64,000 bases of DNA from an uncultured Alphaproteobacteria bacterium (GCA_964404255.1 CAYOJJ010000006.1:11567-75566); one strand, 5' to 3'. Shown: positions 4,013 through 63,077, counted from the stretch's first letter. Made by a program: numbers and translations. Notes: generated by a model not told the origin, from the letters alone.

Positions 4013-4015
4013 GTA

Positions 4016-9989: not shown

Positions 9990-11320
9990 AGTTTCGTTCG
10001 ATCCTTTGCCTGCTGCTTATAGCCGCGACCGCTACAGCTCAAAAGAAACGCACGGTTGTGCCGGATAAAATGCCAATGGCAGGCATTAAGCAGCAACCGG
10101 TCTATTCGCTCGATATTGCAAGGCCTATTGAGCTGTTCGACGCCAATCCTACCGGCAGCCTATGGTATTTCGTCGATGAGTTCGGTCTCTTAAAAACGAT
10201 CACGATCAATGGCAAAACGATCGAGCGGCAGTTCAATGAAATTCCCGTGCTATCGACCCGCCTTTCTCCAAATGGGAAGTATGTGATCTGGACGGGCTTC
10301 GATCGTAAGATCGATGAAGAAGGATTTAATACCACGCTGACAACACTGTATCGCTGTGATGGGAAAAGCTGCGATTCCATCGGTTCTTTTACCAGCGATT
10401 TCGCTCAGTTGTATTTTACACCAAACGGAGATCATTGGGCGGCTACATTGCCGGCGGCAAATGTACTGCAGGAAGGGCTGCGCGATGTTGTAATCGTCGA
10501 TGGAAAGATCGTTGCCAAGGGTAATGCTAATCCCAGGAAATTTACTTTCAGCAGCAATGGTAAAGACTGGGCCTATCGTTCGGATAATGGTAAAGAAGAA
10601 AATCTTATCACTTCGAAGGGCAACCATCTGCTCTATACCAAACTTTCCGATAACCCCTATAATGGTACCACAGAGCCGATGATCATCCGCTTTTCGCCCG
10701 ATACACGGCTTGGTCCTAATACGCTCGATGGCCGCGATTACGATTGGGATATCCGTCATGTTGCTACGATGTATCAAACCTCGTATCAACGCGGCGCCGA
10801 AGATACGGCATTGAAATACATTGTGTTCAACGGAAAGCGGCAGCTCTCCTCGCGCTGGATTAAAGATGTACAGATCGATTCGGCCGGCAAGCATATTACC
10901 TACTTTGCCTGCGATACGGCTGAGCAATGGAAGAAAAACAAAAAAGGTAACCGGGCTCTCGTCGTTCGTGATGGTAAAGTGATTGCCGGTCCGTATGACG
11001 ATGCATGGCGAATGTTTTTAAGCGAAAGCGGAGAGCATACGGCCTGGACGGTCATTACCGATTCGAGCGTTTATTTTTATCTCGATGGAAAGAAGATCGA
11101 GCAGGTTGGAGAATTTTTCAAGATCATTTGGTCGCCGAACGAACAACAGTATGCCTATGCAACGACGGACGATCACGATAAAGTCTATGTCGTGGCCGGC
11201 GGAAAACGCTCGCCTTCATTCGATATGATCGGAAAGATCGGTTTTACGGCCGATGGAAAAGCGATCGAGTATCTTGCCGTTAAGTACGATAAAATACTGC
11301 ATGTTACCCAACAGTTGTAA
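9986..11320 (+). CDS. Secreted hypothetical protein
   Basis: Signal peptide MKFRSILCLLLIAATATAQ and an ATGA overlap with the glycosyltransferase gene. Preferred over the antisense ORF 10250-10927. Confidence 0.55.
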   Translation: MKFRSILCLLLIAATATAQKKRTVVPDKMPMAGIKQQPVYSLDIARPIELFDANPTGSLWYFVDEFGLLKTITINGKTIERQFNEIPVLSTRLSPNGKYVIWTGFDRKIDEEGFNTTLTTLYRCDGKSCDSIGSFTSDFAQLYFTPNGDHWAATLPAANVLQEGLRDVVIVDGKIVAKGNANPRKFTFSSNGKDWAYRSDNGKEENLITSKGNHLLYTKLSDNPYNGTTEPMIIRFSPDTRLGPNTLDGRDYDWDIRHVATMYQTSYQRGAEDTALKYIVFNGKRQLSSRWIKDVQIDSAGKHITYFACDTAEQWKKNKKGNRALVVRDGKVIAGPYDDAWRMFLSESGEHTAWTVITDSSVYFYLDGKKIEQVGEFFKIIWSPNEQQYAYATTDDHDKVYVVAGGKRSPSFDMIGKIGFTADGKAIEYLAVKYDKILHVTQQL

Positions 11321-28014: not shown

Positions 28015-28065
28015 AACGATCTCGATTCGCACAAAGCGAATGGATTTTGATCCCCGGCTCATCTT

Positions 28066-28182
28066 TCCTTAAGAAGGGTTGCTTCTCTTGGCAGGATTTA
28101 GCACCTGGACTTACAGTCTTTCGACTCTAACGGTTGCTACAGCTTCTTCGGGCCTGTCCCTCAGCTGTTCTTGATGAGTAAC
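28066..28182 (-). ncRNA. SAM-I (S-box) riboswitch
   Basis: Minus-strand RNA CUCAUCAAGAACAGCUGAGGGACAGGCCCGAAGAAGCUGUAGCAACC...GGUGCUAAAUCCUGCCAAGAGA...GAAAGAUGAG matches the S-box consensus (P1 CUCAUCAAGA/GAUGAG, GAGGGAC, GGCCCGA, GCAACC, GGUGCUAAnUCCUGC). Confidence 0.85.
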
Positions 28183-36900: not shown

Positions 36901-36999
36901 TACGATAGATAAAAGAGGAATTGGCATATGCGAAATTAAAAAGGGTGACAAATAAGAATGAATACTTTGGGAATTAAAAAACTTACATCCGCTCCACAC
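33916..36999 (-). CDS. NACHT-family STAND NTPase with uncharacterised N-terminal domain and long C-terminal helical region (putative defence protein)
   Basis: 1027-aa ORF with Walker A ILGDPGGGKSTL and Walker B IVIFDGLDEL (NACHT hhhhDGLDE). A/T-rich codon usage is clearly different from the flanking genes. Confidence 0.7.
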   Translation of the reverse strand: MWSGCKFFNSQSIHSYLSPFLISHMPIPLLSIVQSIAITALKSAVPKISKKVWERFYIGEDLHRSIKDHEIGLSSIVTKVTNLIELRTKEGGDISIEEIGIFINTPEVNSLFQAIITVDLAKLEQRENLGSIKKLFLKYFSEKFGTSKGNQKVANELWSLILKTIEIILQDAILDGNILAMESSNNIKFKILAEKLDKILECTKLSKTINPTVFKKIETYAIKYAQAVAIRCDEIEPFQAKVSRKLRLDDLYVTPKIIFHESRIKDNTKINFHRFFENIHRTVILGDPGGGKSTLSKKICALYAATDPTRTLRNHRIPILVVLREYSADRKQYRRYSILEHIKSQAVSRYQMTDTGPENTFEYLLSSGKAIVIFDGLDELLATSERKEIRTDVESFCNNYPHTPVLVTSRRIGYSEAPLDSKVFSEFLLSEFDSEDINSYVKKWFSILDDLTETEKTLKSESFLKESETVNDLCSNPLMLGLMCNIYREVNYIPRNRPEVYKKCTELLFENWDKSRNIPVNFRYEDQVRPIIANLAYWIYSNTDFQKKGVTTSQLIQQAVRYYYPAHQSSQDAAERVANELIQFCTGRAWIFCDQGTTASGEDLYLFTHATFLEYFTAVYLTRKNDTPQKLFDALKLKIAHQEWDVVASIAFQIRSKEIEFAANKFCTLLISYSKTLHEDKAWNTIIFLFRSFQYMLPDLAQQNAAYYFLIRSLQVILNKPKNSSGKLPINQSEQLIAAILRMDISCRENFSNFIDDLLEKSVRTHKKDTIIVIIELLIVLSRRFHHLTSDEESSEFWQVKLDMYFAKYRDYLITTSKDSPFITYNLLTKYHFIALPFAINNHGISFVTESIGNSLGFGMQYINFISVMTSYIVDRLNELDNEYFHHSKIFNAFLRDFGVIILQTKISPHSVDIFPPLLEKRVEPFTSSIDITRLEDGLFGAICCFLILYETIAENKSTKRRRYDIEQILSENSIARPFTAILRARDLKDTLFYNDLLPEYSLTDVQKEFILSWISGKRSILSNRKN

Positions 37000-47562: not shown

Positions 47563-47634
47563 TGCCTCGTGGCCTAATGGTATGGCATCTGATTCTGGAT
47601 CAGCAGGTTCCAGGTTCGAGTCCTGGCGAGGCAG
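47563..47634 (+). tRNA. tRNA, most likely tRNA-Gln (anticodon CUG)
   Basis: Cloverleaf: 7-bp acceptor stem TGCCTCG/CGAGGCA, T-arm CCAGG-TTCGAGT-CCTGG, and anticodon loop TTCTGGA with U33 and CTG at positions 34-36. One mismatch at 27:43 makes the isotype call less certain. Confidence 0.7.
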
Positions 47635-47635
47635 C

Positions 47636-47664
47636 AAAAAGGGACTCATCGAGTCCCTTTTTTA
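47636..47664 (+). terminator. Rho-independent terminator after tRNA
   Basis: AAAAAGGGACTCATCGAGTCCCTTTTTTATT: a perfect 8-bp stem, a 4-nt loop and a T-run. Confidence 0.8.
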
Positions 47665-47675
47665 TTGCGTATTAG

Positions 47676-47745
47676 TTTGGTTAGGGTCAAAGGGTCATGG
47701 GGTCAAAGCCTAGGGGTTTGACCCCATGACCCTTGACCCTTGATC
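47676..47745. repeat. Left copy of ~65-bp palindrome-containing direct repeat (ATTAGT..GGGTCAAAGGGTCATGGGGTCAAA-spacer-TTTGACCCCATGACCCTTGACCC)
   Basis: Imperfect inverted repeat with ~23-nt arms built from GGGTCA units. It shares ~80% identity with the copy at 52910-52975. Confidence 0.75.
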
Positions 47746-48057
47746 CTACCTTTCGAATTAATTGGTATCCTTTTGCCGTTATTGAGGTGCGTTTATTTTC
47801 CATCATCACAATATGACCGGAATATTGAAGCTGATAATAAGGTGGTCGGCCGTGGCGGACAACCTATTGTTTTTCTTTCGGGAATGTTTGGCTAACAGAT
47901 CACACCTACGGCATTCACCATATTCATCTAAAAAAGATGAGTATCTGTACATACCGCCCCCACAGTTCTGCGCGAGCATTAAGCAATAATGAACATCCAT
48001 ACTCGTTACTTTATGCTACTTAACCTAGTTAGATAAAGAACTACTAGAAATTTATAT

Positions 48058-48906
48058 ATGAATTTTGATCAATTTAGGGACGAAGATCCCTTAGCAAACC
48101 ATGAACGACTTCGTTCCAATTTCGTCAGGCAATTCGTACAACACTACAACACGCCATCCAGGACGCGGACAGCATATAATAAAGCAACGCCAAAACGCAT
48201 AGTACAATTTTGGGATAATCTTGATCAATTACCTCAGGATGTTAAAGAATGTATGGATTCTTGGAGGGTACTTGAACGGTCTGGATTTGAATTTCAGATT
48301 TTTGACGAAACGACGGCAAGAGAGTTTATCAAGGCTCAATTAGGCTCAAGATATGGAAAAGCATTTGATAAGTGTTATCATCCTTCAATGAAGTCCGACT
48401 ATTTCCGGTATAGCTACATTTTCGTAGAGGGTGGTTTCTATATTGACGCAGATGATGTCTACCATGGAGCTGTGATCGATCATCTATTTGCTGATGGGAG
48501 ATTGAAACTTCAACCATTCTGTTATGATATTGCAACAAATCAAATGGTTTCACCTTCATCTTTTGTGAATCAGGGAGCAAACAAAACGAGTTGGATTTTT
48601 TATTTCAATACAACACCATTAATCGCAAGTCCCAAACACCCTATTGTTGAACGGGCACTGCTTAACGCTACTACATATCTTGAGCAAGTATCAGAAGGAG
48701 AATTACCAGAAGTTCAGGCTTCCACTGGTCCAGGCAACCTCACCAGATCTATTTTTGAACTGCTCGCTGATCAAGCCTGTCCTGAGGAAGAATTGCTTAT
48801 TTTACATGATTGGGAGAAGATATCTACTAGTAAATGGCCGCTTAGTTATCGAAATGACAAAAGGAATTGGAGGCTTTCTAATCAGCAAGCCTATCAAACT
48901 TCATAA
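48058..48906 (+). CDS. Glycosyltransferase family 32-like (DXD sugar-binding region)
   Basis: RIVQFWDNL ... SMKSDYFRYSYIFVEGGFYIDADDV matches the GT32/Gly_transf_sug signature. The gene is AT-rich. Confidence 0.65.
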   Translation: MNFDQFRDEDPLANHERLRSNFVRQFVQHYNTPSRTRTAYNKATPKRIVQFWDNLDQLPQDVKECMDSWRVLERSGFEFQIFDETTAREFIKAQLGSRYGKAFDKCYHPSMKSDYFRYSYIFVEGGFYIDADDVYHGAVIDHLFADGRLKLQPFCYDIATNQMVSPSSFVNQGANKTSWIFYFNTTPLIASPKHPIVERALLNATTYLEQVSEGELPEVQASTGPGNLTRSIFELLADQACPEEELLILHDWEKISTSKWPLSYRNDKRNWRLSNQQAYQTS

Positions 48907-48920
48907 CAAAAATAGAAGCC

Positions 48921-51149
48921 ATGAACTTACTACGCCCTCAACTGGCCATTATCAGTTATGCTTTTCGAACGTGGCTCTCTTTTCGCAGGCTTCTACATAA
49001 ACGAAGGTGTCAAGCATTTGGTATTAAACGTAACGGAAAGCGCTTGCAAATTGAGAAGATCTATGTTATCAACCTTAACCGTGAACCTGGACGTTGGGCC
49101 AGGATGAAGCAAGAGCTCAAACGAATATTTGACTCATCAGGAGTTGAACTCCTAAATTTATCTGTGCGGCATGTTGCTATTGATGCTAATGAGTTTTCAC
49201 GAAATCCGTCTAAAGATGCTCAGATCGATCCTTTTTACACCCTTGAAGATCAGTTATTTGTAGAACCCCAACCGCTGGTTCTTCCAACCCGCCTCGAACT
49301 AAATGAACCGATTCGAATGAGTCGAGCTGAGTGTGCCGTTGCGCAATCACATATCAGTGTATGGAAACAGGTTGCTGAGAGTAATAACGAATACGTACTC
49401 ATACTTGAGGATGATGTATGGTTTCATTTAAACTTCGCAAGCGATTTAGATAAGGTGTGGAATGATCTAGAAAATGATTTGCAGGGTAAATTTGACATTC
49501 TTTATTTGTCTTATCTTGAAGTAAAGCATGGTGCGCCAAAAACTATTTTGTCAAGGAATGTATTTAGACCAATGCGTGGACTTTGGCACCTGTCTGGGTA
49601 TGTGCTTTCTAGAAATGGCGCTGAAAAACTTCTAGGTCTTCTCCCATGTCGTGGCCCGATTGATCTTTGGATAAATCAGCAGTTCAAAACATTGGATGTG
49701 CTTGCAGCTAAACATTCTCTTATTAGCCAACGCAGGGACACTAAATCTAGCAATTCGTATTCAATACTTCCCACACTTACTAAGATAGGGGCAATCACTA
49801 GTGAGGGGGCAGCATTATTTAATATCCGGCCAGCTGAGCAGCCCGTATTTGCTTTTGGCCCTGAAGGTACTGGCCAGTCATCGCTTGCAATGGCCTTGTC
49901 TATGCTAGGATACAGGTGCTGTAGTGATTTCCAAGATATACCTTTAGCTGAAATGGATAATCTTCTCAATGGAAGAGCGGAGAGAGTTTTCAATGCATAC
50001 GTGAATATTGGCTCTTTGTATTCAAAAGTTACGGAGCTCCTGATTCTATACCCAAAGGCAAAGTTTATTATTACGGCAGATAAAAAAGCCGTTTCAGACG
50101 AGATGTTCTTGAAAATGGAAGATAGTCTGAGAAATGCCGATCTGGCTATACTTTATTCAGAAAAATTGAATACGTGGCAAACCATTTGCGAACACTTAAG
50201 GTGTGCGCCACCTAAATGCTCTTACCCTATGGTGAAGGATATTGGTCAAAGACCAATTCTCAACACAAAGAATGAACACAAACCGGCTATAAAAACAAAG
50301 ATTCCTAAACGTGATAGCTCACCATGGGTCATTGAGTCCCATAAGTTATGGCGAGGTATCAGTCTTGTCGAGACAAGGAGTTGGCAGGTTGATACTGGAA
50401 CATTAGTCAAAATCACCGACTCTTTGGAATCTCATGATGCAAAACTGTGGCACCTAAGGAGAGATACTTTCACCGATAACTTGGCATTGTTTCGCCCGTC
50501 AAATGTCGAGTTTAAATCAGGTATAGGAGCTGTGCTTAACGTAAAAAAGGAATCCGTCGGCGTTCGAGATTACACTGCTGCATCGTTATCCAGCCAAAAC
50601 CAATACTTATTCGGAAAATTCGAAGCAACCATCAAAGCATCCAATGTTCCAGGAGTAGTCACTGGACTATTTCTCTACCGCAACTCCCCCCGACAGGAAA
50701 TAGATATCGAAATTACGGGTAATCGGCCAAACCGGCTCTTGGTTAATGTATTTTACAACCCAGGTACTGAAGGAGCAAACTTTGATTATGGTTATAGAGG
50801 AGCTCCGACTTATATTGAATTAGGGTTTGATGCATCTAAGGAAAGTCATCGCTTTCAAATTGAATGGGATCCGTACGAAATTAGATGGTTGGTTGACGAC
50901 AACCTCGTTCATAAACGAACTGTATGGAATCCGACACCTATTCCAGACCTTCCTATGACGTTCCATGTTAATAATTGGGTCTCTCGTTCTGCACAGCTTG
51001 CTGGGCGAATTAACAAACGACATCTCCCAGCTACCTCCATAGTTAGTGAAGTCACACTAACGGCAAATGTCGTCATTCAAAAATCCGAGGACAATGAACC
51101 GCAGTTGCAGACCCTTACTAATGTTAACCCAAGTCAGTTTATTCAATGA
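48921..51149 (+). CDS. Multidomain glycan-modifying enzyme: N-terminal GT25-like glycosyltransferase, central P-loop/sulfotransferase-like region (tentative), C-terminal GH16 glycoside hydrolase/transglycosylase
   Basis: The N-terminus (EKIYVINLNREPGRWARMKQEL ... YVLILEDDVWFH) is GT25-like. The middle has FAFGPEGTGQSSL. The C-terminus (QEIDIEITGN ... FQIEWDPYEIRWLVDDNLVHKRT) carries the GH16 ExDxE catalytic motif. Confidence 0.6.
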   Translation: MNLLRPQLAIISYAFRTWLSFRRLLHKRRCQAFGIKRNGKRLQIEKIYVINLNREPGRWARMKQELKRIFDSSGVELLNLSVRHVAIDANEFSRNPSKDAQIDPFYTLEDQLFVEPQPLVLPTRLELNEPIRMSRAECAVAQSHISVWKQVAESNNEYVLILEDDVWFHLNFASDLDKVWNDLENDLQGKFDILYLSYLEVKHGAPKTILSRNVFRPMRGLWHLSGYVLSRNGAEKLLGLLPCRGPIDLWINQQFKTLDVLAAKHSLISQRRDTKSSNSYSILPTLTKIGAITSEGAALFNIRPAEQPVFAFGPEGTGQSSLAMALSMLGYRCCSDFQDIPLAEMDNLLNGRAERVFNAYVNIGSLYSKVTELLILYPKAKFIITADKKAVSDEMFLKMEDSLRNADLAILYSEKLNTWQTICEHLRCAPPKCSYPMVKDIGQRPILNTKNEHKPAIKTKIPKRDSSPWVIESHKLWRGISLVETRSWQVDTGTLVKITDSLESHDAKLWHLRRDTFTDNLALFRPSNVEFKSGIGAVLNVKKESVGVRDYTAASLSSQNQYLFGKFEATIKASNVPGVVTGLFLYRNSPRQEIDIEITGNRPNRLLVNVFYNPGTEGANFDYGYRGAPTYIELGFDASKESHRFQIEWDPYEIRWLVDDNLVHKRTVWNPTPIPDLPMTFHVNNWVSRSAQLAGRINKRHLPATSIVSEVTLTANVVIQKSEDNEPQLQTLTNVNPSQFIQ

Positions 51150-52780
51150 AAATTATATCATTTAATCCCGGTCATGATGGCGCTTTTGTTTACCTCGAAG
51201 ACGGGCAGTTGATTGCCTCGATTGAAGCTGAGAAAAACTCTCGTTATCGTCACTCGCCGCTTTCTGTGCCAGATGCGTTCAGCATTCTAGGTGAACTTAG
51301 AGAGGTGCCGGATGTGCTTTGTAGAGGAGGGTGGTGGCCAGGCAATTCTCTTTCGTCTGAGCAGCGCTCTCTTGCTGGATACTATGGTTTAAGCAACAGT
51401 GATATTATCACCGGTCAAAAACGCCTTTTAGGAAAGAATGTTGATTATTTCTCCTCTTCGCACGAACGATCCCATCTTCTTTGCGCCTTTGGTATGTCAG
51501 ATTTACCAAAGGGAACCCCCTGCTACGCTCTACTTTGGGAAGGCGTGATCGGTTCGTTTTACGAAATTGATGCTGAGTTAAATTTGACAAAACTCGCGGA
51601 TGTTATGCCTGAGCCAGGACATCGATATGCCTTGCTTTACGGCTTGGCTGACCCAACCTTTGATAAAAAAAATGCAGAATTCTCGCGATTTTCCGACGCA
51701 GGGAAGTTAATGGCATTAACTTCATTTTCGAAGAGAAGCAAACCTACGGATGAGGAGGAAAAGATAATAGAGTTTCTAATGCAAGACACTCTTCATCTAA
51801 AGGCATACGAGTGCGAAGCCTTAAGACATTATTGTCACTATAATGTAGGATTGGATGATGTTGAGTTTCGTAACTTCACAGGTATAGTAAGCGATAGAAT
51901 ATTTGATCGTTTTTATCAGTATGCCAAATTGAAGATGAAGAGAAACATGCCGCTGCTCATTACTGGTGGGTGTGGTCTTAATTGTGATTGGAATTCGAAA
52001 TGGAGCGAGGCTAATCTCTTTTCGGAAATATTTGTACCACCTGTCGCCAATGATTCAGGGTCAGCTATTGGCACGGCGATTGATGCCCAATTCCATTTCA
52101 CTGGCAATCCTAAGATAAATTGGAGTGTCTACTCTGGTCTTGAATTTAATGCTGAGGGCCCATTTGATGCATCATTATTTGACGAGTACGAAACAAGTTA
52201 TACAATGATTTCTGAAATGCTTGCAAATGATTTGATTGTCGGATGGGTAGATGGGAAATATGAAATTGGCCCTCGTGCCTTGGGAAATCGTTCAATTCTT
52301 GCTTCACCCTTTCATGAAAGCACTAGAATTCGGCTAAACGAGATTAAGCAGCGCGAACAGTTTCGCCCAATTGCACCTGTTTGCTTAGAAGAAGATGCTC
52401 CAAGATGGTTTAATTGCAATCAGTCTAGCCCATATATGCTTTACACGAAGATTGTTTCTACAGATGCTCTCGCTGCGGTGACCCACGTCAATGGTACTGC
52501 ACGTATACAAACGGTATCTAATAAAACCAACAGCCACTTATATAAATTGCTTATTGCCTTCAAGGCACTCACTGGCTATGGGGTTTTGTGTAATACTTCT
52601 TTGAATTTCAAGGGGAGAGGATTCATAAACAATATTGCTGATCTCGCAACATATACAATAGACCACAATTTGGATGGATTTGTAATTGCAGAAAAATGCT
52701 ATATGTTAAGGAGCTCTAAAAGTTATCAGGCCTATCTTAGTATCAAAAATTCAGTACGGCACAGGGAACGCCAAAATTGA
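51146..52780 (+). CDS. Carbamoyltransferase, NodU/CmcH family
   Basis: MKIISFNPGHDGAFVYLEDGQLIASIEAEKNSRYRHS is a carbamoyltransferase N-terminal signature; 544 aa. ATGA overlap with the previous gene. Confidence 0.75.
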   Translation: MKIISFNPGHDGAFVYLEDGQLIASIEAEKNSRYRHSPLSVPDAFSILGELREVPDVLCRGGWWPGNSLSSEQRSLAGYYGLSNSDIITGQKRLLGKNVDYFSSSHERSHLLCAFGMSDLPKGTPCYALLWEGVIGSFYEIDAELNLTKLADVMPEPGHRYALLYGLADPTFDKKNAEFSRFSDAGKLMALTSFSKRSKPTDEEEKIIEFLMQDTLHLKAYECEALRHYCHYNVGLDDVEFRNFTGIVSDRIFDRFYQYAKLKMKRNMPLLITGGCGLNCDWNSKWSEANLFSEIFVPPVANDSGSAIGTAIDAQFHFTGNPKINWSVYSGLEFNAEGPFDASLFDEYETSYTMISEMLANDLIVGWVDGKYEIGPRALGNRSILASPFHESTRIRLNEIKQREQFRPIAPVCLEEDAPRWFNCNQSSPYMLYTKIVSTDALAAVTHVNGTARIQTVSNKTNSHLYKLLIAFKALTGYGVLCNTSLNFKGRGFINNIADLATYTIDHNLDGFVIAEKCYMLRSSKSYQAYLSIKNSVRHRERQN

Positions 52781-52861
52781 GACTATCGAGAAGTTGTCGG
52801 CAACATTAGAAATAGAAATGTACAAACTGTTTATTAAAGACTCTTATTTGAAATAATAACG

Positions 52862-52890
52862 AAGCCGCTCAAACGCGGCTTTTTATTTTG
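52862..52890 (+). terminator. Rho-independent terminator of glycan cassette
   Basis: AAGCCGCTCAAACGCGGCTTTTTATTTT. Confidence 0.75.
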
Positions 52891-52909
52891 AAATGGGTGC
52901 TGCTTTTTA

Positions 52910-52978
52910 ATTAGTATCAGGGTCATAGGGTCAAACCCCTATAGGTTTGACCCTATGACCCTTTGACCCTGGGGTTGC
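52910..52978. repeat. Right copy of palindrome-containing direct repeat (ATTAGTATCAGGGTCATAGGGTCAAACC-CCTATAGG-GTTTGACCCTATGACCCTTTGACCCTGG)
   Basis: Near-perfect 18-nt inverted arms around a palindromic centre. It shares the ATTAGT...AGGGTCA.AGGGTCA...ATGACCCTTTGACCCT backbone with the 47676-47745 copy. Confidence 0.75.
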
Positions 52979-54044
52979 GGTAGTGCCCTGGGCGTCCTTT
53001 GGTTAATCCTTCTCTAATACCTCTTTTGGCAGTGGAGTGTGATACCTCGAACTGGTCCTGGTAGCGCTGAAGTAATTCCCCATACGGCAGTTCTTCCTCG
53101 TCATCCTCAAAGAGGAGGGAGCAATCTCTTTCCGGTTTATAACTTCCGGGTAGGGTAAAATCGCTGTGGGGCCGTTCGTTGCCGGTGCGGGTAAAGGTAA
53201 GGGAGTGCTCATGAAACTGCAATTCGAGCGCTTTTTCTTTTAGTTTGCCGGAGACTCCATTACCTTTAAGCACCGAAAGGTATCGTATGCCTTCTGCTTC
53301 TCCTTTTCTGAGTTCGAGCAGCAATCTCGTTTTTTGTCCCAGTGCACCGGCGCCTTGTACATGCCGTTGGTTCGGAGCTACGGAATAGGCCGCTTTATTT
53401 AAGTGATGGATAAACAAAAGAAGGCATTCGAATTTATTGGCCAGCAGCGCAAAGGGTTTGAGAAATGCCCGTACATCGGTGTTCGAATTTCCATCCCTGC
53501 CGTTAAAGAGATCGCCGTAGCTATCTAAGACGATCAGATCCACGGGGTTTGCTGAAAGCATCGTGAACAGGTTCTCTAAGAGGGCCTTGGTATGTATCTG
53601 ATCGGCAAAGACTATTTGCAGGTGGTCGCGGTTGCAGCTTGCCGTATGATCTGCGCTAGCCTGCAATTGCTTTGTAAAGGCAAATTGGGTGGTATCGATG
53701 CTATCCTCGGTGGAAACATAGATGGCTCTCGAGTGGCGAAGCGATAAGGGAAAGCCAAGAAATTCGCTGCGGCCAAGGGAAATACTTAAGGCCAGTTCTC
53801 GGCAAAACATCGACTTCCCGCTATCGGGAGCACCGGCAATCGCTGCTAATCCCATCACCGGCATGATAGCGCCCCAGAGGTAGCGGTGCGGGGTGCTCTG
53901 GCGCTCGAGTAACTGGCCGAGCGAAAAGATGTATTGCTCGGATTCCGATTCATTCTCCGCTTGCTTGAAGAACGAGTCTAAGTCGGCGATAGAAGATTCG
54001 GGTTGAAAGATGGAATTCACGGCTTCTTCCGTACTGGGGTTCAT
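52953..54044 (-). CDS. AAA_25/RepA-like RecA-fold ATPase (mobile-element replicative helicase-like)
   Basis: Walker A GAPDSGKSM and Walker B-like IVLDSYGDLF, ~363 aa. The 5' part of the longest ORF overlaps the repeat, so the true start may be downstream. Confidence 0.6.
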   Translation of the reverse strand: MNPSTEEAVNSIFQPESSIADLDSFFKQAENESESEQYIFSLGQLLERQSTPHRYLWGAIMPVMGLAAIAGAPDSGKSMFCRELALSISLGRSEFLGFPLSLRHSRAIYVSTEDSIDTTQFAFTKQLQASADHTASCNRDHLQIVFADQIHTKALLENLFTMLSANPVDLIVLDSYGDLFNGRDGNSNTDVRAFLKPFALLANKFECLLLFIHHLNKAAYSVAPNQRHVQGAGALGQKTRLLLELRKGEAEGIRYLSVLKGNGVSGKLKEKALELQFHEHSLTFTRTGNERPHSDFTLPGSYKPERDCSLLFEDDEEELPYGELLQRYQDQFEVSHSTAKRGIREGLTKGRPGHYRNPRVKGS

Positions 54045-55057
54045 TGGGTGAGTTCTTTCTCTATGTATTCTTTGTAAATGAGATCGGCAGCGTCAAGCCC
54101 GTCCGAAGGATCGGTTGTCAGTTTCCATTGGTCAAGTTTCTCGGCCTGGCAATTGATATCAGTGAGAATCTTGCACGCCTTCTGTGCACCGGTTTCACCG
54201 GCAGTATCGCAATCGTATAATACTTTAACGGTTCTTCCACGAAGGATGAGCGCTTTCTCTTTAGTAAGTCCGTTCGCACCGCCGCTTGCAATCCATATAA
54301 ATTCCGGTTTATGATGACTTAAAATGATAGCCGTTTTTTCCGACTCAACAAGAATAATTTGCGTGTTCCGATTATACGGCACCCCGTACCGATTCTTAAA
54401 TCCCGCACATAACTGATGTTCGCCAAAAAGGCAGGTGTGAAATCCCTCCGATTTTGAATACAGGAAGGAAGCGGGGGAGTGCTTATCGCGGTGGAAGCCA
54501 TCCGGTAAATACTTTATTTTCTTGGCGTTGACATATTGTTGCCGGTAATTCTGGTACCAATAGAGCACGGCTCCATCCGAAGCGAAGCCGATATTCCAGT
54601 CCGATAAAATGCTTTCTCTGGTCAAGCGGATTATTGTCTCAGCAAACGGATGTACTGCGCGAAGCCTTTTAAGCTCCGAGTGCAGGCGTTGGCTTGTAAG
54701 CCCTGAACGCTCGTTTGCTTCTGCGGTCGTTAAGCCACCATCAAACTCCATAATAGCTGCCCTTTCTTCAAATGAGTCGCATTCGGTATTCTGATCTTCG
54801 CTAGCGAACCCTACAATGGTTTTGGCCACCTGTTGCCGATTGATGAATTGCTGCAATTGCTGTGGCCTTGTCTTCTTGCCCTGTTCTCGATGGGCATTCG
54901 CCGTATCGGTTATTGGTGGAAAGATGGTACTGTCACAGGAAAAGCAATGCCCAAAGTGCTCGTGTCCTTTGAACGCAGCAAAGGCAGTCCGAGCAGCACA
55001 TCGGGGGCACCGTGTTCTTTTATTTGAATAAGAATATGTTGGGAATGCAGTAGCCAT
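54041..55057 (-). CDS. DNA primase with CHC2-type zinc finger and Toprim domain (P4-alpha/mobile-element type)
   Basis: N-terminal CPRCAARTAF...GHCFSCDS zinc finger and a C-terminal Toprim region (ILVESEKTAIIL ... VLYDCDTAGETGAQK). ATGA overlap with the ATPase gene. Confidence 0.65.
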   Translation of the reverse strand: MATAFPTYSYSNKRTRCPRCAARTAFAAFKGHEHFGHCFSCDSTIFPPITDTANAHREQGKKTRPQQLQQFINRQQVAKTIVGFASEDQNTECDSFEERAAIMEFDGGLTTAEANERSGLTSQRLHSELKRLRAVHPFAETIIRLTRESILSDWNIGFASDGAVLYWYQNYRQQYVNAKKIKYLPDGFHRDKHSPASFLYSKSEGFHTCLFGEHQLCAGFKNRYGVPYNRNTQIILVESEKTAIILSHHKPEFIWIASGGANGLTKEKALILRGRTVKVLYDCDTAGETGAQKACKILTDINCQAEKLDQWKLTTDPSDGLDAADLIYKEYIEKELTQ

Positions 55058-55225
55058 CGGATCCAGCGGTTGCTAAGACAACATGGCCCGAGCCAAGTGC
55101 CTATAGCTCGGTGGAGGATTGCGGTTTTTCAAATGCATCTGGGCCGAGTTGCCTATTAGTTTGAGACCTAATTTTTAAAATGGTGTCTTACTATACGTGT
55201 ATATTGTGCAGCAGTATTTCTGGTT

Positions 55226-56879: not shown

Positions 56880-59800
56880 ATGAAAGATATTGCTATGGCT
56901 ACTCACAGACGAGCTCAATGGTTAGTGCTGGGATTATTATTATGCGGAGCAATAAATATTGCTTCGGCTCAGGTCCCGAAGACTATCTCTTATCAGGGAA
57001 GAATTCAGCAGGGGACTTCGCTTGTGAGCGGCAAACATTTGCTGCACATTGCTTTTTATGATGCCGAGACCGGTGGAACAAAGCTCTACGAAGAATCTCA
57101 ACAGCAGGAAATCTCCGATGGATTATTCTCGATCGTGATCGGGACGGTCACTCCTTTCCCTGCTTCTTTGCCATTCGATAAACCATACTTTCTGGCTATA
57201 AGTATCGATGGTGCGGATGAACTACTGCCGAGAACTCCTATGACGAGTGTTCCTTACTCGCTTAATAGTCATTACGCGGAGTTAGCAAAAGGCCTTACTC
57301 CTGATGCGAATGGAGTTGTCACCAGTATTAATGAATTAAGCGGAGCTATTCGTATAACGGGTGATAGTACAACTGCTATTACGCAAACCGGTAATATAAT
57401 TTCTATTCATTCTTTCGGAAGTGGCAGCACAGCTACTGCCGGAATTCAATCGATTACGAGCCCGGATAAAACAATTGCAATAACCGGTACTGCCGGGCCA
57501 AGCACCACAATCGGTGTTGCCGATAACGCTATTACTACCTCAAAGCTCGCTAACGGTGCGGTTACTCTTTCAAAGATAAATCAGAGTGGCGCTAAAATTG
57601 GGCAGATCATTAAATGGAATGGCAGCTCCTGGGTTGCAGCAGATACGACTATTCCTTCTGCTTCGAATCTTATTCCGGGCACAACACCGAATAGCACCCT
57701 TAGATGGAATGGTACGCAATGGGTGGAAAATACCAATCTCCGCAGTGACGCAACTGGCAATACGAGCGTAAATGGCAGTACTACACTCGGTGATGGGACC
57801 GGTAATGATGACCTCACTATTCAACCCGGCTCCGGCGTAGTAAAGATAGCAGGTTTTGGAAAAGGAGTTGTAAAGAGCACGGCGGTGGGAGTTCTTTCAA
57901 GCACTGCTCTTGATTTAGCGAACGATGTGACCGGTATACTATCAGTCTCAAAAGGTGGTACGGGCGTCTCGACTCTTCCTGTAGGTCAACTGCTTGTCGG
58001 CAACGGAGTAAACCCAATTAGTACCATGAGCTTAAATGCCGGTGCAGGAATTGCTATTAGCTCGAATGGCAGCGCGCTAACTATTACTAATATAGATACA
58101 CTCCAATGGAAACTGCTGGGTAATACTACTATCAATCCTGCTACACAATTTTTAGGCACTACCGATCTGAATCCGATCCCATTTCGTACCAATAATATCG
58201 AGCACATGCGCCTTGATGCATCGGGAAAACTCGGTATCGGTACTACGGTGCCATCTCAATTGCTCGAAGTTAGAAATGGAAATATCCTTATTTCGAATTC
58301 CGGTACAGCAGGGAGTTTACAGATAGCCGCACCGGGAAACAGCTTGTCCACTGCTTTTACAACCTCATCTCAAACGGCCGATATAACATATAAATTACCT
58401 CCAAGCATTGGCACTGCTAATCAGGCGCTCGCCATTGCTTCGGTTTCCGGTACTACCGCTACGCTTGGTTGGGTTAATGCGGCAAGTGCTACGGCCTGGA
58501 ATCTCATCGGCAATAGCAGCACTACTGCCGGAACAAATTTTCTTGGTACCACCGATGATCAGCCACTGTATGTGCAAGTTAAAAATGGCGCGACGGTTTC
58601 CAATAGTCTTATTCTCAATCCTAATGGTTCGATCCAGCATAGCCCAACTCGCAATGCGAGAGGGGCTAGTGCAGTCGATCTTCAGCTCAATGGTGCGGTG
58701 GGCACTCATGTGGCCAGCGGTCAGTATTCGGTACTATCCGGTGGCAGAAATAATGTAGCGGGAGGGGATGGCTCTGTCGTTGCAGGTGGCGAAGGTAATT
58801 CTACCGTTTCAAATTATTCCGTTGTCGGCGGTGGAGCTTCTTCGGTTGCCGGGGGAAGTTATTCCGTTGTAAGCGGAGGAAATTTAAACAGTGCCAGTGG
58901 TGCACTCTCATCGGTGATCGGTGGAATAGCTAACGAGTCATTTGGTGCTCGTTCGTCAGTTCTTGGAGGCGGCTATTTAAAGTTAGGTGCCAATAGTGTC
59001 GGCTATAATTATGAATCCGGGACTACTATAACCAATATCAGTGCTCTGAGCAATCTGGCATATTTTGGTAATGTCGATATGATGATCGGTAATACCGATA
59101 ATACTGCGCGTGAGCTTCGCTTCTACGAACCTAATACGTCCTTCACGTATACTGCTACAAACTTCAGCTCCTTCAAAGCCGGCACACAGGCAAGCGATAT
59201 TATTTATATACTTCCAACTTCACAACCAACGGCTAATCAGGTTCTTTCGGCAACTTCTATAACAGGATCAGGGCCGTATACTATTGGGCTTGGTTGGACG
59301 AACAGTGCTAATGCAGCCTGGAATCTTACAGGTAATAGTGGGACGACGGATGGCACAAATTTTCTCGGCACTACTGATAACGTCCCATTCACTATTCGTG
59401 CAAATAATATACGGGCATTTCGGATAGAGCCGTTTGCAGGTGCAGTAAACATTATTGCGGGAATAAATACTAATAGTGTCGGAAGTGGATTTTCTGGAGC
59501 TACAATTTCCGGAGGAGGATCAACCTTTAGTCCAAATACTATTTCAAATTATTTTGCTACAATATCTGGTGGCGCCCAGAATACTGTTACGGCCAATGGA
59601 GGAGTGGTTGCCGGTGGTCAGGTGAATGCCGCAGGTGGTTCGGTTGGTTCTACGGTTAGCGGTGGTTTTTATAATACTGCAAGCGGTTCATTATCTAGTA
59701 TTGCCGGAGGTTCGAGTTTAAAAGTTGGAAATCTTAGTTTCGGATTCAATGGTGAGCAATATAGCATCAATCCAAGTACTACTATAACAGACATCTCTTC

Positions 59801-62800
59801 GCATTCAAATACCGCTTATTTCGGAAATGTGGACCTATGGCTCGGTAATGTTGATAACACCGCAAGAGGGCTGCGCTTTTACGAACCCAATTCATCGCGC
59901 ACCTATACCAATACTAACTTTTCATCCTTCAAAGCCGGGACACAAACGGATGATATTATTTATACACTGCCGACTTCGCAGCCAACCGTCAATCAGATAC
60001 TTTCCGTCACTTCAGTAAGCGGGTCCTCTCCATACGAAGTAGCCCTTGGCTGGGCAACGAGCACCGGGCCGGCCTGGAATCTTACCGGGAATAGTGGTAC
60101 TACGATCGGCACAAATTTCCTGGGCACGACCGATAATCAACCCTTTGAAATACTTGTAAAGAATGGAAGCTCTATTAGTAATTCCTTGATCTTTGAATCT
60201 AATGGCTCTATTCATCGGGACAATCAGGGGAATGCCCGCGGAGCGTATGCCATCGATCTGCAATCTCTTCCGACCGGTGCCTCAGCACTTCATGTAGCCA
60301 GCGGTAATCAATCTGCCATTTTGGGTGGAGTAAGTAACCAGGCAAGCGGGGCCTATTCTGTTAGCACCGCAGGATATGATAATATCGCATCCGGAGACTA
60401 TTCTGCTATTGGCGGTGGAGATGCAAACAGCGCAACGGGCAGCCATGCAACTATTAGTGGTGGGCGGTATAACGTTGCCTCGGGAGATGGGTCATTTATC
60501 GGTGGCGGTGGTTATCAGGGAGCGACGAAACCTAATGTTGCTGCCGGTACTGCTTCGGCGATTGTCGGAGGATGGGCCAATTATACTGCGGGGTTCTATT
60601 CATCAGTGGCCGGAGGAGAAAGTAATGGGGTAACAGGTACAAGTTCTGCCATTGCCGGAGGAGGATATTTGCGCTTAGCAGGCAACGGATCTTTTGGTTT
60701 TAATAATGGAAGCAGCGCCTCGGATAGTGCTTATGTAAGTGCGAACGCTACGGCCTATTTTGGCAATGTCGATCTGTGGCTTGGTAATACCAATAACACC
60801 GCAAGCCAGTTGAGATTTTATGAAGCGCAAAATGGCGGCATAACCATGCCGGGAGCTGCTACAAATTATTCGGCATTCAAAGCCGGTGCACAAACAGCCG
60901 ATATTACTTATACGCTTCCAACAACCCAGCCGAGCGCTAATCAAGTGCTTTCGGCAACGACCGTCAGTGGAACGGGGCCTTATTCCGTAACTCTTGGTTG
61001 GGCAGATGCCGGTACTGGCAGTGGGTTTGTCAATTACGGTCCAACGACTGCTCAAGCTACACTGACTCCGAGAACAACACCGCTATTTAATATAGCCTAT
61101 ATATCTTCTGCCGCTAATGCTAATGCCGCAGGCGCTACTATTACATCCAGTGCAGGAACCGCGGGTAATTTTAATGCTACCGGTCTAACTGTTATTGCTA
61201 CTGCTACCGGCACCGGGCTTGCAAGAGCTATCGATGCAACCGGAAGAGTAAATATTAATGCGCCGTCGAGTTATGATATTGGCGGGACAAGATTTTTATG
61301 GACGGGCGCAAATTCTTCAAATCAGAATACTCTGGTCGGTAATACCGGGAATACAGTAAATGCTGCAAACCTTAATACGTTTGTAGGATACAATGCCGGA
61401 TACAGCAATGATTATGGGGATGGTAATACGTTTCTGGGTGCAGAAAGCGGTAAGAATACAAACGGCGCTTCTGGCTCGGATAACACATTCGTTGGCGCTG
61501 AATCGGGCTATTCGAATACTGATGGAACACAGAATACTTTTATCGGCAGTTATTCCGGCTATTTCAATACTACAGGAAATTATAATATTTTTATTGGTGA
61601 AAATACCGGTTTTTCAAATGTCAGTGGGACAAGCAATACATTTGTGGGAATGAATGCCGGCTGGCAAAATACGGCAAACAGTAATTCGCTGTTCGGACAA
61701 GGTTCTGGATTTAACCTTAAAACAGGATCAAACAATACCTTTATAGGAGTATCAAGCGGTTACTACGATACTTCGGGAGGAAGTAACGTTATGATCGGGG
61801 TCAGTTCGGGCCTTTACCATAAGGCCGGAGATAATAATACCTACATCGGAAGAGGCTCGGGAAGTATCGATACGGCAGGTATCAATAATACAATGATAGG
61901 ATATGGAGCAAGCCCAACGGCAGGTCATTTCAGTAATGCGACAGCTATTGGAGCTTCGGCACAGGTCGGCGCAAGTAATAGTATCATTCTCGGTAGTATT
62001 TCCCCGGTAACAAAAGTCGGAATTGGTACCATTGCTCCGCAACAACAATTAAATATTGAGAACGGTAATGTTCTTCTTTCGAGAACGACAGGCAATAGTC
62101 CGGATTCAATACAATTCCAGGGTACGGGCACCGGAATATCTTCATTTGCTGCCGGAGCCCAAAGTACAACCACGATAAATTATACATTGCCGACCTCGCA
62201 GCCAAGTGCTAACCAAGTGCTGACGGCAAGTTCGGTAAGTGGCTCTGGTCCCTATTCGGTTGCTCTTAGTTGGGCTAATAGTACTGCGTCGGTTTGGAGT
62301 CTGTCCGGAAATAGTGGAACAAGTTCTTCGTCCAATTTTATTGGCACGACGGATAATCAGGATCTCGTCATTAAAACCAATAATAGTGAGGCTCTTCGGG
62401 TAAAAGCCTCCGGGAATATTGGTCTTGGCACCACTACTCCTTCTCATAAATTACATAGTGTTAATAGCACCACTACCGATGAAGTTGCTGCTATCTATGG
62501 TACTACCACCAGCTCGACTTCCAGCCAGTCTATTGGTATGTGGGCAGATGCAAGTAATACTGCCACTTCAAATACCGGTACTATTGCTATGCTTGCTACG
62601 GGTAATGGGAATACAACGGCCGGACAAACCAACATTGCCCTCCAGGTAAACGATGGAGAATTTACTATAGGAAGAACAACAGAAACGCCAACGACGGGTA
62701 CCACCGTTAATGCTGCTACCGGTGGTACCGATTACTCTGCAGAAGGACCGAGTGGGATGGTTGAATTGACACTGGGCAATGGAAATCTTGCAACTGCTGC

Positions 62801-63077
62801 TCCCACCGCCAACACGATGCAGAGTTTTGGAGCAATCACTATTAATAATCGATATTGTCAGGCAGCAAGTATCGTACTGGTCAATGTATCGGGTATGACC
62901 GAAGATGGCACAGCACCGGATGTGCGGGATGCAGCATTCATAGTAAATGTAGATAATATCGCCGCAGGGTCATTTTCAGTTCGTATCAAGATGATACCTT
63001 CGGCCACCAATGCTACCAACTATAGCTCGAACGATAAAATAAGAATAGGGTACGTCATTGTAAATCCTTCCAGATAA
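56880..63077 (+). CDS. Giant secreted repeat protein (2065 aa) with ~6 internal ~200-aa repeats and tail-fibre-like NxFxGxxAG C-terminal region
   Basis: Signal peptide. Repeats of FKAGTQ..DIIYTLPTSQPTANQVLSATSVSGSGPY..LGW...WNLTGNSGTT.GTNFLGTTDNQP. A C-terminal run of NTFVG..AG / NTFIG..SG heptad-like repeats is followed by ATAIGASAQVGASNSIILGS...VGIGT. Confidence 0.7.
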   Translation: MKDIAMATHRRAQWLVLGLLLCGAINIASAQVPKTISYQGRIQQGTSLVSGKHLLHIAFYDAETGGTKLYEESQQQEISDGLFSIVIGTVTPFPASLPFDKPYFLAISIDGADELLPRTPMTSVPYSLNSHYAELAKGLTPDANGVVTSINELSGAIRITGDSTTAITQTGNIISIHSFGSGSTATAGIQSITSPDKTIAITGTAGPSTTIGVADNAITTSKLANGAVTLSKINQSGAKIGQIIKWNGSSWVAADTTIPSASNLIPGTTPNSTLRWNGTQWVENTNLRSDATGNTSVNGSTTLGDGTGNDDLTIQPGSGVVKIAGFGKGVVKSTAVGVLSSTALDLANDVTGILSVSKGGTGVSTLPVGQLLVGNGVNPISTMSLNAGAGIAISSNGSALTITNIDTLQWKLLGNTTINPATQFLGTTDLNPIPFRTNNIEHMRLDASGKLGIGTTVPSQLLEVRNGNILISNSGTAGSLQIAAPGNSLSTAFTTSSQTADITYKLPPSIGTANQALAIASVSGTTATLGWVNAASATAWNLIGNSSTTAGTNFLGTTDDQPLYVQVKNGATVSNSLILNPNGSIQHSPTRNARGASAVDLQLNGAVGTHVASGQYSVLSGGRNNVAGGDGSVVAGGEGNSTVSNYSVVGGGASSVAGGSYSVVSGGNLNSASGALSSVIGGIANESFGARSSVLGGGYLKLGANSVGYNYESGTTITNISALSNLAYFGNVDMMIGNTDNTARELRFYEPNTSFTYTATNFSSFKAGTQASDIIYILPTSQPTANQVLSATSITGSGPYTIGLGWTNSANAAWNLTGNSGTTDGTNFLGTTDNVPFTIRANNIRAFRIEPFAGAVNIIAGINTNSVGSGFSGATISGGGSTFSPNTISNYFATISGGAQNTVTANGGVVAGGQVNAAGGSVGSTVSGGFYNTASGSLSSIAGGSSLKVGNLSFGFNGEQYSINPSTTITDISSHSNTAYFGNVDLWLGNVDNTARGLRFYEPNSSRTYTNTNFSSFKAGTQTDDIIYTLPTSQPTVNQILSVTSVSGSSPYEVALGWATSTGPAWNLTGNSGTTIGTNFLGTTDNQPFEILVKNGSSISNSLIFESNGSIHRDNQGNARGAYAIDLQSLPTGASALHVASGNQSAILGGVSNQASGAYSVSTAGYDNIASGDYSAIGGGDANSATGSHATISGGRYNVASGDGSFIGGGGYQGATKPNVAAGTASAIVGGWANYTAGFYSSVAGGESNGVTGTSSAIAGGGYLRLAGNGSFGFNNGSSASDSAYVSANATAYFGNVDLWLGNTNNTASQLRFYEAQNGGITMPGAATNYSAFKAGAQTADITYTLPTTQPSANQVLSATTVSGTGPYSVTLGWADAGTGSGFVNYGPTTAQATLTPRTTPLFNIAYISSAANANAAGATITSSAGTAGNFNATGLTVIATATGTGLARAIDATGRVNINAPSSYDIGGTRFLWTGANSSNQNTLVGNTGNTVNAANLNTFVGYNAGYSNDYGDGNTFLGAESGKNTNGASGSDNTFVGAESGYSNTDGTQNTFIGSYSGYFNTTGNYNIFIGENTGFSNVSGTSNTFVGMNAGWQNTANSNSLFGQGSGFNLKTGSNNTFIGVSSGYYDTSGGSNVMIGVSSGLYHKAGDNNTYIGRGSGSIDTAGINNTMIGYGASPTAGHFSNATAIGASAQVGASNSIILGSISPVTKVGIGTIAPQQQLNIENGNVLLSRTTGNSPDSIQFQGTGTGISSFAAGAQSTTTINYTLPTSQPSANQVLTASSVSGSGPYSVALSWANSTASVWSLSGNSGTSSSSNFIGTTDNQDLVIKTNNSEALRVKASGNIGLGTTTPSHKLHSVNSTTTDEVAAIYGTTTSSTSSQSIGMWADASNTATSNTGTIAMLATGNGNTTAGQTNIALQVNDGEFTIGRTTETPTTGTTVNAATGGTDYSAEGPSGMVELTLGNGNLATAAPTANTMQSFGAITINNRYCQAASIVLVNVSGMTEDGTAPDVRDAAFIVNVDNIAAGSFSVRIKMIPSATNATNYSSNDKIRIGYVIVNPSR

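Follow-up and report, generated by a model that had tools for sequence, protein, structure and literature searches.

Two hexamer palindromes flanking a foreign glycan operon as candidate origin sites of a decayed pri-rep element at tRNA-Gln

Two GGGTCA-based quasi-palindromes of ~60 bp flank a low-GC, three-gene glycan operon in a 64,000-nt stretch of bacterial DNA (GCA_964404255.1 CAYOJJ010000006.1:11567-75566; the window, below, is this whole stretch). The locus raises the question of what these sequences belong to: the operon that they flank, or a different element. An initial annotation had read them as mobile DNA and offered three roles: att-like recombination sites, ends of a hairpin-dependent mobile cassette, or members of a family resembling repetitive extragenic palindromes (REP) or miniature inverted-repeat transposable elements (MITE). 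Our analysis agrees that the repeats are part of mobile DNA and more than terminators, but none of the three roles fits best. We think it probable, from sequence comparison, that the palindromes are iteron-type origin sites, that is, initiator-binding sites, of a small and decayed integrative element at tRNA-Gln that encodes a primase (pri) and a replicative helicase (rep). Loci and protein homologues fetched for comparison are designated by L- and P-numbers, respectively. The argument turns on four features.

47683..47746, no strand: palindrome copy 1, a 3+3 (+1) inverted array of GGGTCA hexamers, recognized by alignment to the palindromes of relatives.
52914..52970, minus strand: palindrome copy 2, a candidate origin-type palindrome overlapping the 3' end of rep, homologous to those of relatives in position, unit number and spacing.
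52953..54044, minus strand: rep, an AAA_25 replicative helicase of the SF4 type (Pfam AAA_25, 4.8e-25; PHROG primase/helicase families; AlphaFold; Foldseek).
54041..55057, minus strand: pri, a DUF6371 protein (Pfam DUF6371, 3.1e-23; phrog_239).

Both palindromes are present as quoted in the initial annotation, with their hexamers phased 8 bp apart. The left arm of copy 1 has GGGTCA at 47684, 47692 and 47700 (spacings 8, 8), and its right arm, beyond a centre of 13 nt, has TGACCC at 47719, 47727 and 47734 with an outer TGATCC at 47741-47746 (spacings 8, 7, 7). Copy 2 has GTATCA at 52914 and GGGTCA at 52920 and 52928 on its left side, and TGACCC at 52948, 52956 and 52964 beyond its centre; on the minus strand, which is the strand of rep, it reads AACCCC-AGGGTCAAAGGGTCATAGGGTCAAA-CCTATAGGGG-TTTGACCCTATGACCC-TGATACTAAT and ends in a TGATAC unit. 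The doublet GGGTCANNGGGTCA, allowing at most one mismatch, matched the window six times, always within the two palindromes, against 0.09 matches expected, and none of 100 shuffles reached six. Folding bore out the predicted hairpins: the single-stranded DNA folds at -30.2/-28.6 and -22.2/-23.2 kcal/mol, with z values of -6.4 to -8.5. A palindrome scan ranked the two copies as the longest palindromes in the 64 kb, where five others have at least 12 stem pairs, ordinary terminators among them; pattern and palindrome scans of the window's other ~50 intergenic regions found no further GGGTCA copy. The two had been described as direct repeats. They are repeats, but the direct orientation is not established, because each copy is nearly symmetric and the pair is direct and inverted at once (I4, I11: 96% complementary). 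When copy 1 was aligned with copy 2, the cores scored slightly better inverted (41.5 vs 33.5), and the two orientations tied once the flanks were included.

We found the counterpart of copy 2 in related loci. A palindrome of three plus three inverted hexamers lies at the same position of the AAA_25 gene in L155 (9290-9346), L158 (3372-3428) and L157 (1933-1989), whose AAA_25 proteins share 48-55% amino acid identity with the Rep of the window. In all three the palindrome begins at conserved NP[RK] codons and is built of the hexamer GTATCA, with spacings of 8 and 8, a centre of 12-20 bp, and then 8 and 7. It is translated there as NP[RK]YQGIIVS...NDTMIPDT, with 8-30 codons following, and the protein sequence of a fourth homologue, P0125, contains the corresponding peptide. 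Copy 2 is likewise flanked by NPR codons on one side and by TGATACTAA on the other, and it keeps one unconverted GTATCA/TGATAC unit followed by TAA, as in L157. Copy 1, aligned on the plus strand, shares the asymmetry of the rep-end palindromes in its 8, 8 / 8, 7 spacing, in the side of the centre on which GGGGTTTG lies, and in the outer TGAT[C/A]CTA.

Symmetry was assessed across five aligned palindrome sequences, with 500 shuffles and slid registers as controls. The results showed that 95% of the cells of the alignment stay complementary and that 8 of the 21 pairs changed on both sides, a level of symmetry that was matched by none of the shuffles and by no slid register. In each arm, all units changed at the same two sites of the hexamer, and units of the same arm do not pair with one another. 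Because units that do not pair mutually changed in concert, the pattern points to a repeated protein-recognition site, that is, to iterons, and not to a mere hairpin.

The genes next to copy 2 are, by similarity, those of a replication module. pri lies upstream of rep and overlaps it by 4 nt. Translated, pri has a zinc finger at its N terminus together with E...DxD motifs of Toprim-like type (ILVESEK, YDCDTAG), which makes Toprim primase the likely role of DUF6371. Both proteins match phrog_239, a phage family of fused 'DNA primase/helicase' proteins, the DUF6371 protein over positions 37-297 and the AAA_25 protein over positions 362-640. The AlphaFold model of Rep (predicted local distance difference test score, pLDDT, 80) has a RecA-fold core and a C-terminal strand-helix-helix-hairpin at approximately residues 318-356 (pLDDT ~85-93), a domain that is predicted from the model to be winged-helix-like. 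The best Foldseek matches of the model were the SF4 helicases DnaB, RSF1010 RepA (1nlf) and T7 gp4; no sequence match for Rep was found in the PDB, and no fold match aimed at the C-terminal domain alone was made. Homologues of the AAA_25 protein are few. A tblastn search of plasmids and phages returned only helicases at 21-28% identity, a protein-based scan of viral contigs gave a single distant match, and the GTATCA version of the hairpin had no match in viral contigs.

The association of such palindromes with primase-helicase genes extends to other loci. We ran a hidden Markov model of the AAA_25 homologues against all open reading frames (ORFs) of the loci fetched by the GGGTCA hairpin pattern; every collection match carries GGGTCA since the query demanded it, and nothing about the specialness of this hexamer can be read from that. 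GGGTCA palindromes stood directly 3' of three unrelated primase-helicase genes, 12-20 nt past the stop codon. In the viral contig L034, where the gene ends at 9939, an AT-rich stretch and further units come after the palindrome (9960-10007). In L110 a Prim-Pol/PriCT/AAA_25 gene ends at 3976, and a single cluster (palindrome 3985-4036) precedes a PolA gene and an integrase gene. The AAA_25 gene of L125 (5646-7400) stands between near-identical palindromes (5389-5445, 7403-7456), a third and degenerate one lies at 5488-5537, and the whole unit sits between folP and an aldehyde dehydrogenase gene. Iteron clusters number two in the window, at least two in L125, and one each in L155, L158 and L110. 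A 17-nt inverted repeat (CCCCAAAAACATCGAG) lies just outside the palindromes of L125, and this stretch (5389-7520) looks like a minimal insertion of rep plus origin.

The location of the module at a tRNA gene bears on its identity as an integrative element, and four further features are needed here.

47563..47635, plus strand: tRNA-Gln (CTG), the left chromosomal boundary of the island (ARAGORN, Rfam).
47641..47663, plus strand: intrinsic terminator of the tRNA, GGGACTC-ATC-GAGTCCC followed by a T run (direct reading, palindrome scan).
47665..47679, plus strand: left 15-bp direct repeat TTGCGTATTAGTTTG, candidate attL, containing ATTAGT.
55149..55163, plus strand: right 15-bp direct repeat TTGCCTATTAGTTTG, candidate attR and right end of the island.

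Where the context of AAA_25 homologues is available, the gene order is fixed: integrase, a protein of ~566 aa, HTH_17 (excisionase-like), DUF6371, AAA_25, and then variable cargo. L155 carries this series, from int through the 566-aa, HTH_17, DUF6371 and AAA_25 genes to the cargo, directly past tRNA-Gln(CTG), and it shares the landmarks of the window, namely DUF1801, a gene for a 165-aa protein and tRNA-Gln(CTG). The order HTH_17-DUF6371-AAA_25 recurs in L158 and on the contig of P0125, which also has an integrase gene upstream. The synteny of the 165-aa gene and tRNA-Gln is common to L033, L159 and L155. In the relatives without the island (L033, L159/L160), tRNA-Gln is followed by a terminator and ordinary genes, with no GGGTCA palindrome at the locus. 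Because L155 carries the complete island past the same landmarks and the island-free relatives have ordinary genes there, tRNA-Gln is a hotspot for this island family, and the window holds a remnant of an island, its pri-rep module, in the orientation opposite to that of L155. The strict empty site that the initial annotation had called for was not found; relatives share the left flank as far as tRNA-Gln and differ rightward. The spacers beside the two copies had no match in the fetched relatives.

The outer junctions carry a repeat of another kind. The 15-bp sequence TTGCSTATTAGTTTG occurs only twice in the window, both times on the plus strand, with a window-wide BLAST E value of 1.3 that is weak alone. 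Its left copy lies just past the tRNA terminator, and its right copy lies in the 168-bp gap between the start of pri (55057) and an ECF sigma gene (55226). It is a reasonable att candidate for an island of 7.5 kb that would comprise both palindromes, the operon and pri-rep. The motif ATTAGT, which had been assigned to palindrome copy 1, belongs instead to the left copy of this repeat. A second occurrence of the tRNA 3' end was not found in the window, nor was an attR found in L155. Between tRNA-Gln and the integrase gene of L155 (4030-4090) there are three TTTGTTACT-like direct repeats, which are probably arm-type binding sites of the integrase. A zinc-ribbon-like ORF of 64 aa beside copy 1 (47806-48000, minus strand), weakly like the gene after rep in L155, was rejected, having no real homologues among 1.8 billion representatives.

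The DNA between the two copies has a history of its own, and its features are the following.

48058..52780, plus strand: glycan operon (Pfam; GC content at third codon positions, GC3, 0.32-0.38; DNA identity to L161-L164).
48058-48906, plus strand: GT32-like gene (Pfam).
48921-51149, plus strand: GT25/sulfotransferase-like/GH16 fusion gene (Pfam).
51146-52780, plus strand: carbamoyltransferase gene (Pfam).
52861..52890, plus strand: intrinsic terminator of the operon (direct reading).

As the initial annotation had noted, this DNA is AT-rich; it is compositionally foreign, with a GC content of 0.41 and a GC3 of 0.32-0.38 vs a GC3 of 0.44-0.62 in neighbouring genes. The operon was found at 78-80% DNA identity in L161 (7154-11813; GC 0.40) and in L162-L164 (L162 2346-7006, L164 3-4267; GC 0.39), unrelated genomes of low GC, with the match covering window positions 48056-52735 in L161 and 48058-52709 in L162. 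The flanking DUF1801 gene has a protein identity of only 45%, vs these 78-80% at the DNA level. Judged by these sequence comparisons, the operon is a horizontal acquisition from a low-GC lineage. Homologues of the GT25/GH16 fusion protein fall into more than 2300 clusters at 65-76% identity that span Bacteroidota to Proteobacteria, and the operon looks like a very widely transferred one. Neither GGGTCA nor GTATCA palindromes were found at the flanks of the operon in L161 or L162-L164; because these flanks are bare, the palindromes do not travel with the cassette, and the proposal that they are its ends is set aside. The copies flank the operon but, contrary to the earlier claim, do not bracket it exactly: 311 bp separate copy 1 from the first gene and 133 bp separate the last stop codon from copy 2, and this spacer DNA is outside the conserved operon. 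Each copy does stand 3' of an intrinsic terminator, copy 1 starting ~20 nt past that of tRNA-Gln and copy 2 ~30 nt past that of the carbamoyltransferase gene, and copy 2 lies between convergent transcription units.

The origin reading is favoured because of the homology at the rep ends, the symmetry that was kept, the primase-helicase context, the cases of L034, L110 and L125, the island of L155, published parallels (below), and the lack of palindromes both at the operon elsewhere and at the tRNA-Gln locus of island-free relatives. From this homology and architecture, the concerted change of the units and the gene functions by similarity, we infer that Rep binds the hexamers and that copy 2 acts as an origin. 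Copy 2 would be in its native place, with six hexamers, three in each orientation and ~8 bp apart, over the last codons of rep. The C-terminal winged-helix domain of Rep would recognize the hexamers; through their two opposed sets, a pair of helicase assemblies would be placed so as to melt the short centre, and the adjacent Toprim primase (DUF6371) would supply the primers. Each island has its own hexamer, GTATCA in the relatives and GGGTCA in the window, and all units have switched in concert.

Copy 1 would be a second origin-type copy, inverted relative to copy 2 and on the far side of the operon, and it may be accounted for in two ways. It may serve the same replicon as an additional site for Rep. 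If the island closed into a circle at the 15-bp repeats, copy 1 would come to lie ~110 bp upstream of pri, and pri-rep would have a copy on either side, as the gene of L125 has; in a circular molecule there is no difference between bracketing the cargo and bracketing the replication module. P4 requires a pair of iteron clusters, ori and crr, that lie several kb from each other; this would parallel the two copies here and in L125. Alternatively, copy 1 may be a by-product of an event in which int, the 566-aa gene and HTH_17 were lost, the module was turned round and the operon was brought in. The single palindrome of L155 and L158 speaks against the first as the norm.

Several observations weigh against the reading of the palindromes as origin sites. 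The stop codon of rep, TAG at 52953-52955 on the minus strand, is formed within the GGGTCATAGGGTCA iteron: the switch from GTATCA to GGGTCA created it in frame, and the Rep of the window has 363 aa instead of the ~403 aa of homologues, which read through the GTATCA palindrome. The tail that was lost is not conserved, since P0126 ends 8 residues past the palindrome. The window has no homologue of int, HTH_17 or the 566-aa gene either, and with Rep so truncated the pri-rep module may be dead and its sites drifting. Next to copy 1 we found no pseudogene pieces of these genes or of a second rep. Since L155 and L158, the closest relatives, show just one palindrome within 13-19 kb, two-site origins are not the rule in this family. 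The centres of the palindromes (CCTATAGGGG, GCCTAGGGG) are 10-14 bp long and not AT-rich, in which the origins of Staphylococcus aureus pathogenicity islands (SaPIs) differ, and AT-richer DNA (60-64% AT) is found solely beside the palindromes. Finally, GGGTCA hairpins occur in other genomes as interspersed intergenic repeats near housekeeping genes.

This last observation gives its force to the view that both copies, or at least copy 1, are REP- or MITE-like interspersed palindromes, which we regard as unlikely. Such GGGTCA hairpins are abundant as interspersed repeats in Joint Genome Institute (JGI) samples, in the metagenome-assembled genome (MAG) PMV_8.33, in Verrucomicrobia and in a Lachnospiraceae MAG, and both copies in the window lie in intergenic DNA just past terminators. 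However, copy 2 corresponds to the rep palindrome of relatives in every unit and on both flanks, the 64 kb hold just two copies, and GGGTCA palindromes are absent from the relatives L033, L155 and L159. The 31 matches from genome collections included no Ignavibacteriota-like genome, and a family-specific hairpin pattern had zero matches in metagenomes. The suggestion of a REP/MITE family in the initial annotation is thus weakly supported.

The hairpin families of these other genomes have features of their own. In JGI metagenome contigs (L035-L154; e.g. L055 1035-1076) the repeat is very abundant and MITE/REP-like; it has the form cagagatggaaat-GGGTCAGTGGGTCATGGGTCAC..GTGACCCATTGACCC-atgatgatgaaataactgcgcagtagcttg with conserved flanks, and more than 80 short contigs from a small number of related samples carry it. 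On L035 and L083 it forms arrays of 3-4 copies, some of them ~60-110 bp apart. In PMV_8.33, an acidobacterial MAG, hairpins of the GGGTCAAAG type are flanked by caacacaaa; they stand on both sides of thiC and of a GT4-GT4-Wzy block (L011 3364-3423 and 5520-5595; L017 3599-3673 and 7394-7458) and behave as interspersed intergenic repeats. Verrucomicrobia and the Lachnospiraceae MAG have multi-copy families of GGGTCA hairpins.

The palindromes might instead be recombination sites, whether att-like, attC-like or the ends of a hairpin transposon, on which a recombinase acts to move a glycan unit of 5.2 kb; we consider this improbable. The compositional break does coincide with the two copies, the operon is mobile between lineages (its fusion protein recurs across phyla, as described above), and the cargo of related islands starts shortly past the rep-end palindrome and differs among islands. 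Against this, the homologues of the operon have no palindromes at their flanks, and the homology ends before the copies are reached, by 311 bp and ~180 bp. A scan of the ORFs between ~30.7 and 64 kb of the window turned up no integrase, transposase or Y1/HUH gene, and direct reading of both copies revealed no R/L cores of attC type (RYYYAAC...GTTRRRY). Copy 2 is internal to the island, with pri-rep beyond it, and the outer junctions carry the 15-bp repeat instead. L155, which has an integrase, has no palindrome at its tRNA junction. Cassette or att sites are disfavoured because the operon homologues have bare flanks, no recombinase gene was found among the scanned ORFs and the L155 junction is without a palindrome.

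We also give little credence to the idea that the palindromes serve another protein of the island or the host, as operator, partition or copy-control sites, and are not the origin itself. Inverted hexamer arrays would suit many dimeric DNA-binding proteins, the centre has no AT-rich unwinding element, and the palindromes that L125 has in front of rep stand at the place expected of an autoregulatory operator. However, helicase and primase genes are the sole conserved neighbours of the palindromes in L034, L110, L125, L155, L157, L158 and the window, and the palindromes of the window are intact although HTH_17 is missing. A role at the RNA level, as bidirectional terminators or 3' stabilizers between convergent genes, would agree with the strong predicted stems and with the position of copy 2 but is very improbable, because a separate canonical terminator already stands ahead of each copy, neither stem is followed by a U tract, relatives translate the palindrome and 8-30 codons more, a hairpin needs no hexamer shared across the units of one arm, and Rfam has no match to the palindromes.

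If the palindromes are origin sites, a further step may be imagined, in which they do more than bind Rep passively: duplication of an origin could create a slot that captures foreign operons, and detached copies could seed hairpin families across a genome. We put this forward as a speculation of low probability. If true, it would link the rep-adjacent origins of the window, L034, L110 and L125 to the hairpin families of Acidobacteria, Verrucomicrobia, the Lachnospiraceae MAG and the JGI samples.

As for the surroundings, the left side of copy 1 has an M3 peptidase gene, the 165-aa gene, and tRNA-Gln(CTG) with its terminator, and homologues of the M3 peptidase bear Ignavibacteriota/Kapaibacteria-like names. 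Rightward of copy 2, pri and rep look host-like in composition. A second low-GC patch (33916-36999, minus strand; GC 0.33-0.38) encodes a NACHT/STAND NTPase of 1027 aa and adjoins clpX; the gene is probably a horizontally acquired one of defence type, and no GGGTCA palindrome was found near it. Elsewhere in the window there are an S-adenosylmethionine riboswitch (28056-28180, minus strand; RF00162, 68.6 bits) and, downstream of the ECF sigma gene and a BNR/Ycf48-like gene, an ORF of 2065 aa (56880-63077) with three internal repeats of ~750-950 bp (families D1-D3).

The locus offers a testable pair of origin and initiator for an uncharacterized integrative family of int, HTH_17, DUF6371 primase and AAA_25 helicase in Ignavibacteriota-like bacteria, in which related islands carry cargo of defence type (type I restriction-modification in L158, a methyltransferase and a kinase in L155). 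The putative switch of iteron specificity from GTATCA to GGGTCA, with one relic unit, is a natural one and could be used to map how a winged helix reads DNA. For annotation, the locus cautions that palindromes on either side of a foreign operon are not necessarily the ends of that operon.

Among known systems, REP sequences and the bacterial interspersed mosaic elements (BIMEs) formed from them, like MITEs, resemble the palindromes of the window in being hairpin units of 40-80 bp in intergenic DNA past terminators. Unlike REP/BIME units, the palindromes have, by direct reading, no consistent GTAG end; they occur in two copies only, and the ORFs scanned from ~30.7 to 64 kb include no RAYT. Integron attC sites, including clusters of attC sites lacking integron integrases (CALIN), are likewise imperfect palindromes that flank cassettes and fold as single strands. 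The window differs from them in that it has no R''/R' cores and no IntI was found, in that the three-gene operon has its own spacers and terminator, and in that the stems are built of tandem hexamers.

The replicons of small integrative elements are closer in kind. SaPI origins have 6-12 penta- or hexanucleotide iterons directly downstream of rep, in two opposed sets that are bound by the winged-helix C-terminal domain of Rep (PMC9371898). With SaPIs and other phage-inducible chromosomal islands (PICIs), the window shares the order of primase, initiator-helicase and origin at the rep end (PMC9371898), six hexanucleotide iterons in two opposed sets (as in L155, L157 and L158) and an island-specific iteron sequence, and the model of its Rep predicts a C-terminal domain that may be a winged helix; its relatives also share an int and a xis-like gene upstream and a fixed chromosomal integration site. 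It differs in that the helicase is of SF4, with the RecA/DnaB/RepA fold (AAA_25), and not of SF3 or SF6, that the primase is a DUF6371 Toprim protein, and that the host is Ignavibacteriota-like. There is no long AT-rich centre here, and the iterons form a compact, near-perfect palindrome that overlaps the rep coding sequence; neither int nor xis is present in the window, where genes for packaging or helper interference were not seen either.

The origin of pRN1 is a stem-loop just 3' of the gene for a protein with primase, helicase and winged-helix domains, conserved in structure and not in sequence, and similar stem-loops follow phage replication genes (PMC4234260). The window shares with pRN1 a large palindrome directly 3' of primase-helicase coding sequence, with a winged helix predicted here, and the conservation of structure over sequence (PMC4234260), whereas pRN1 has a Prim-Pol fused to an SF3 helicase and a stem-loop of ~100 nt without recognizable iterons, where the window has stems of phased hexamers. 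The alpha protein of P4 binds repeats of its origin through a winged helix, as cited in PMC4234260, and the likeness to P4 alpha, as far as that citation describes it, lies in a Toprim primase-helicase and short repeats and, by prediction here, in a winged-helix origin-binding domain. P4 alpha differs in being a single polypeptide with an SF3 helicase and in having octamer iterons that do not form one perfect palindrome, and the closest relatives of the island in the window show one cluster only. Taken together, the SF4 helicase, the DUF6371 Toprim primase and the compact palindrome that overlaps rep and has no AT-rich centre are best explained as a variant within the known pri-rep-ori kind.

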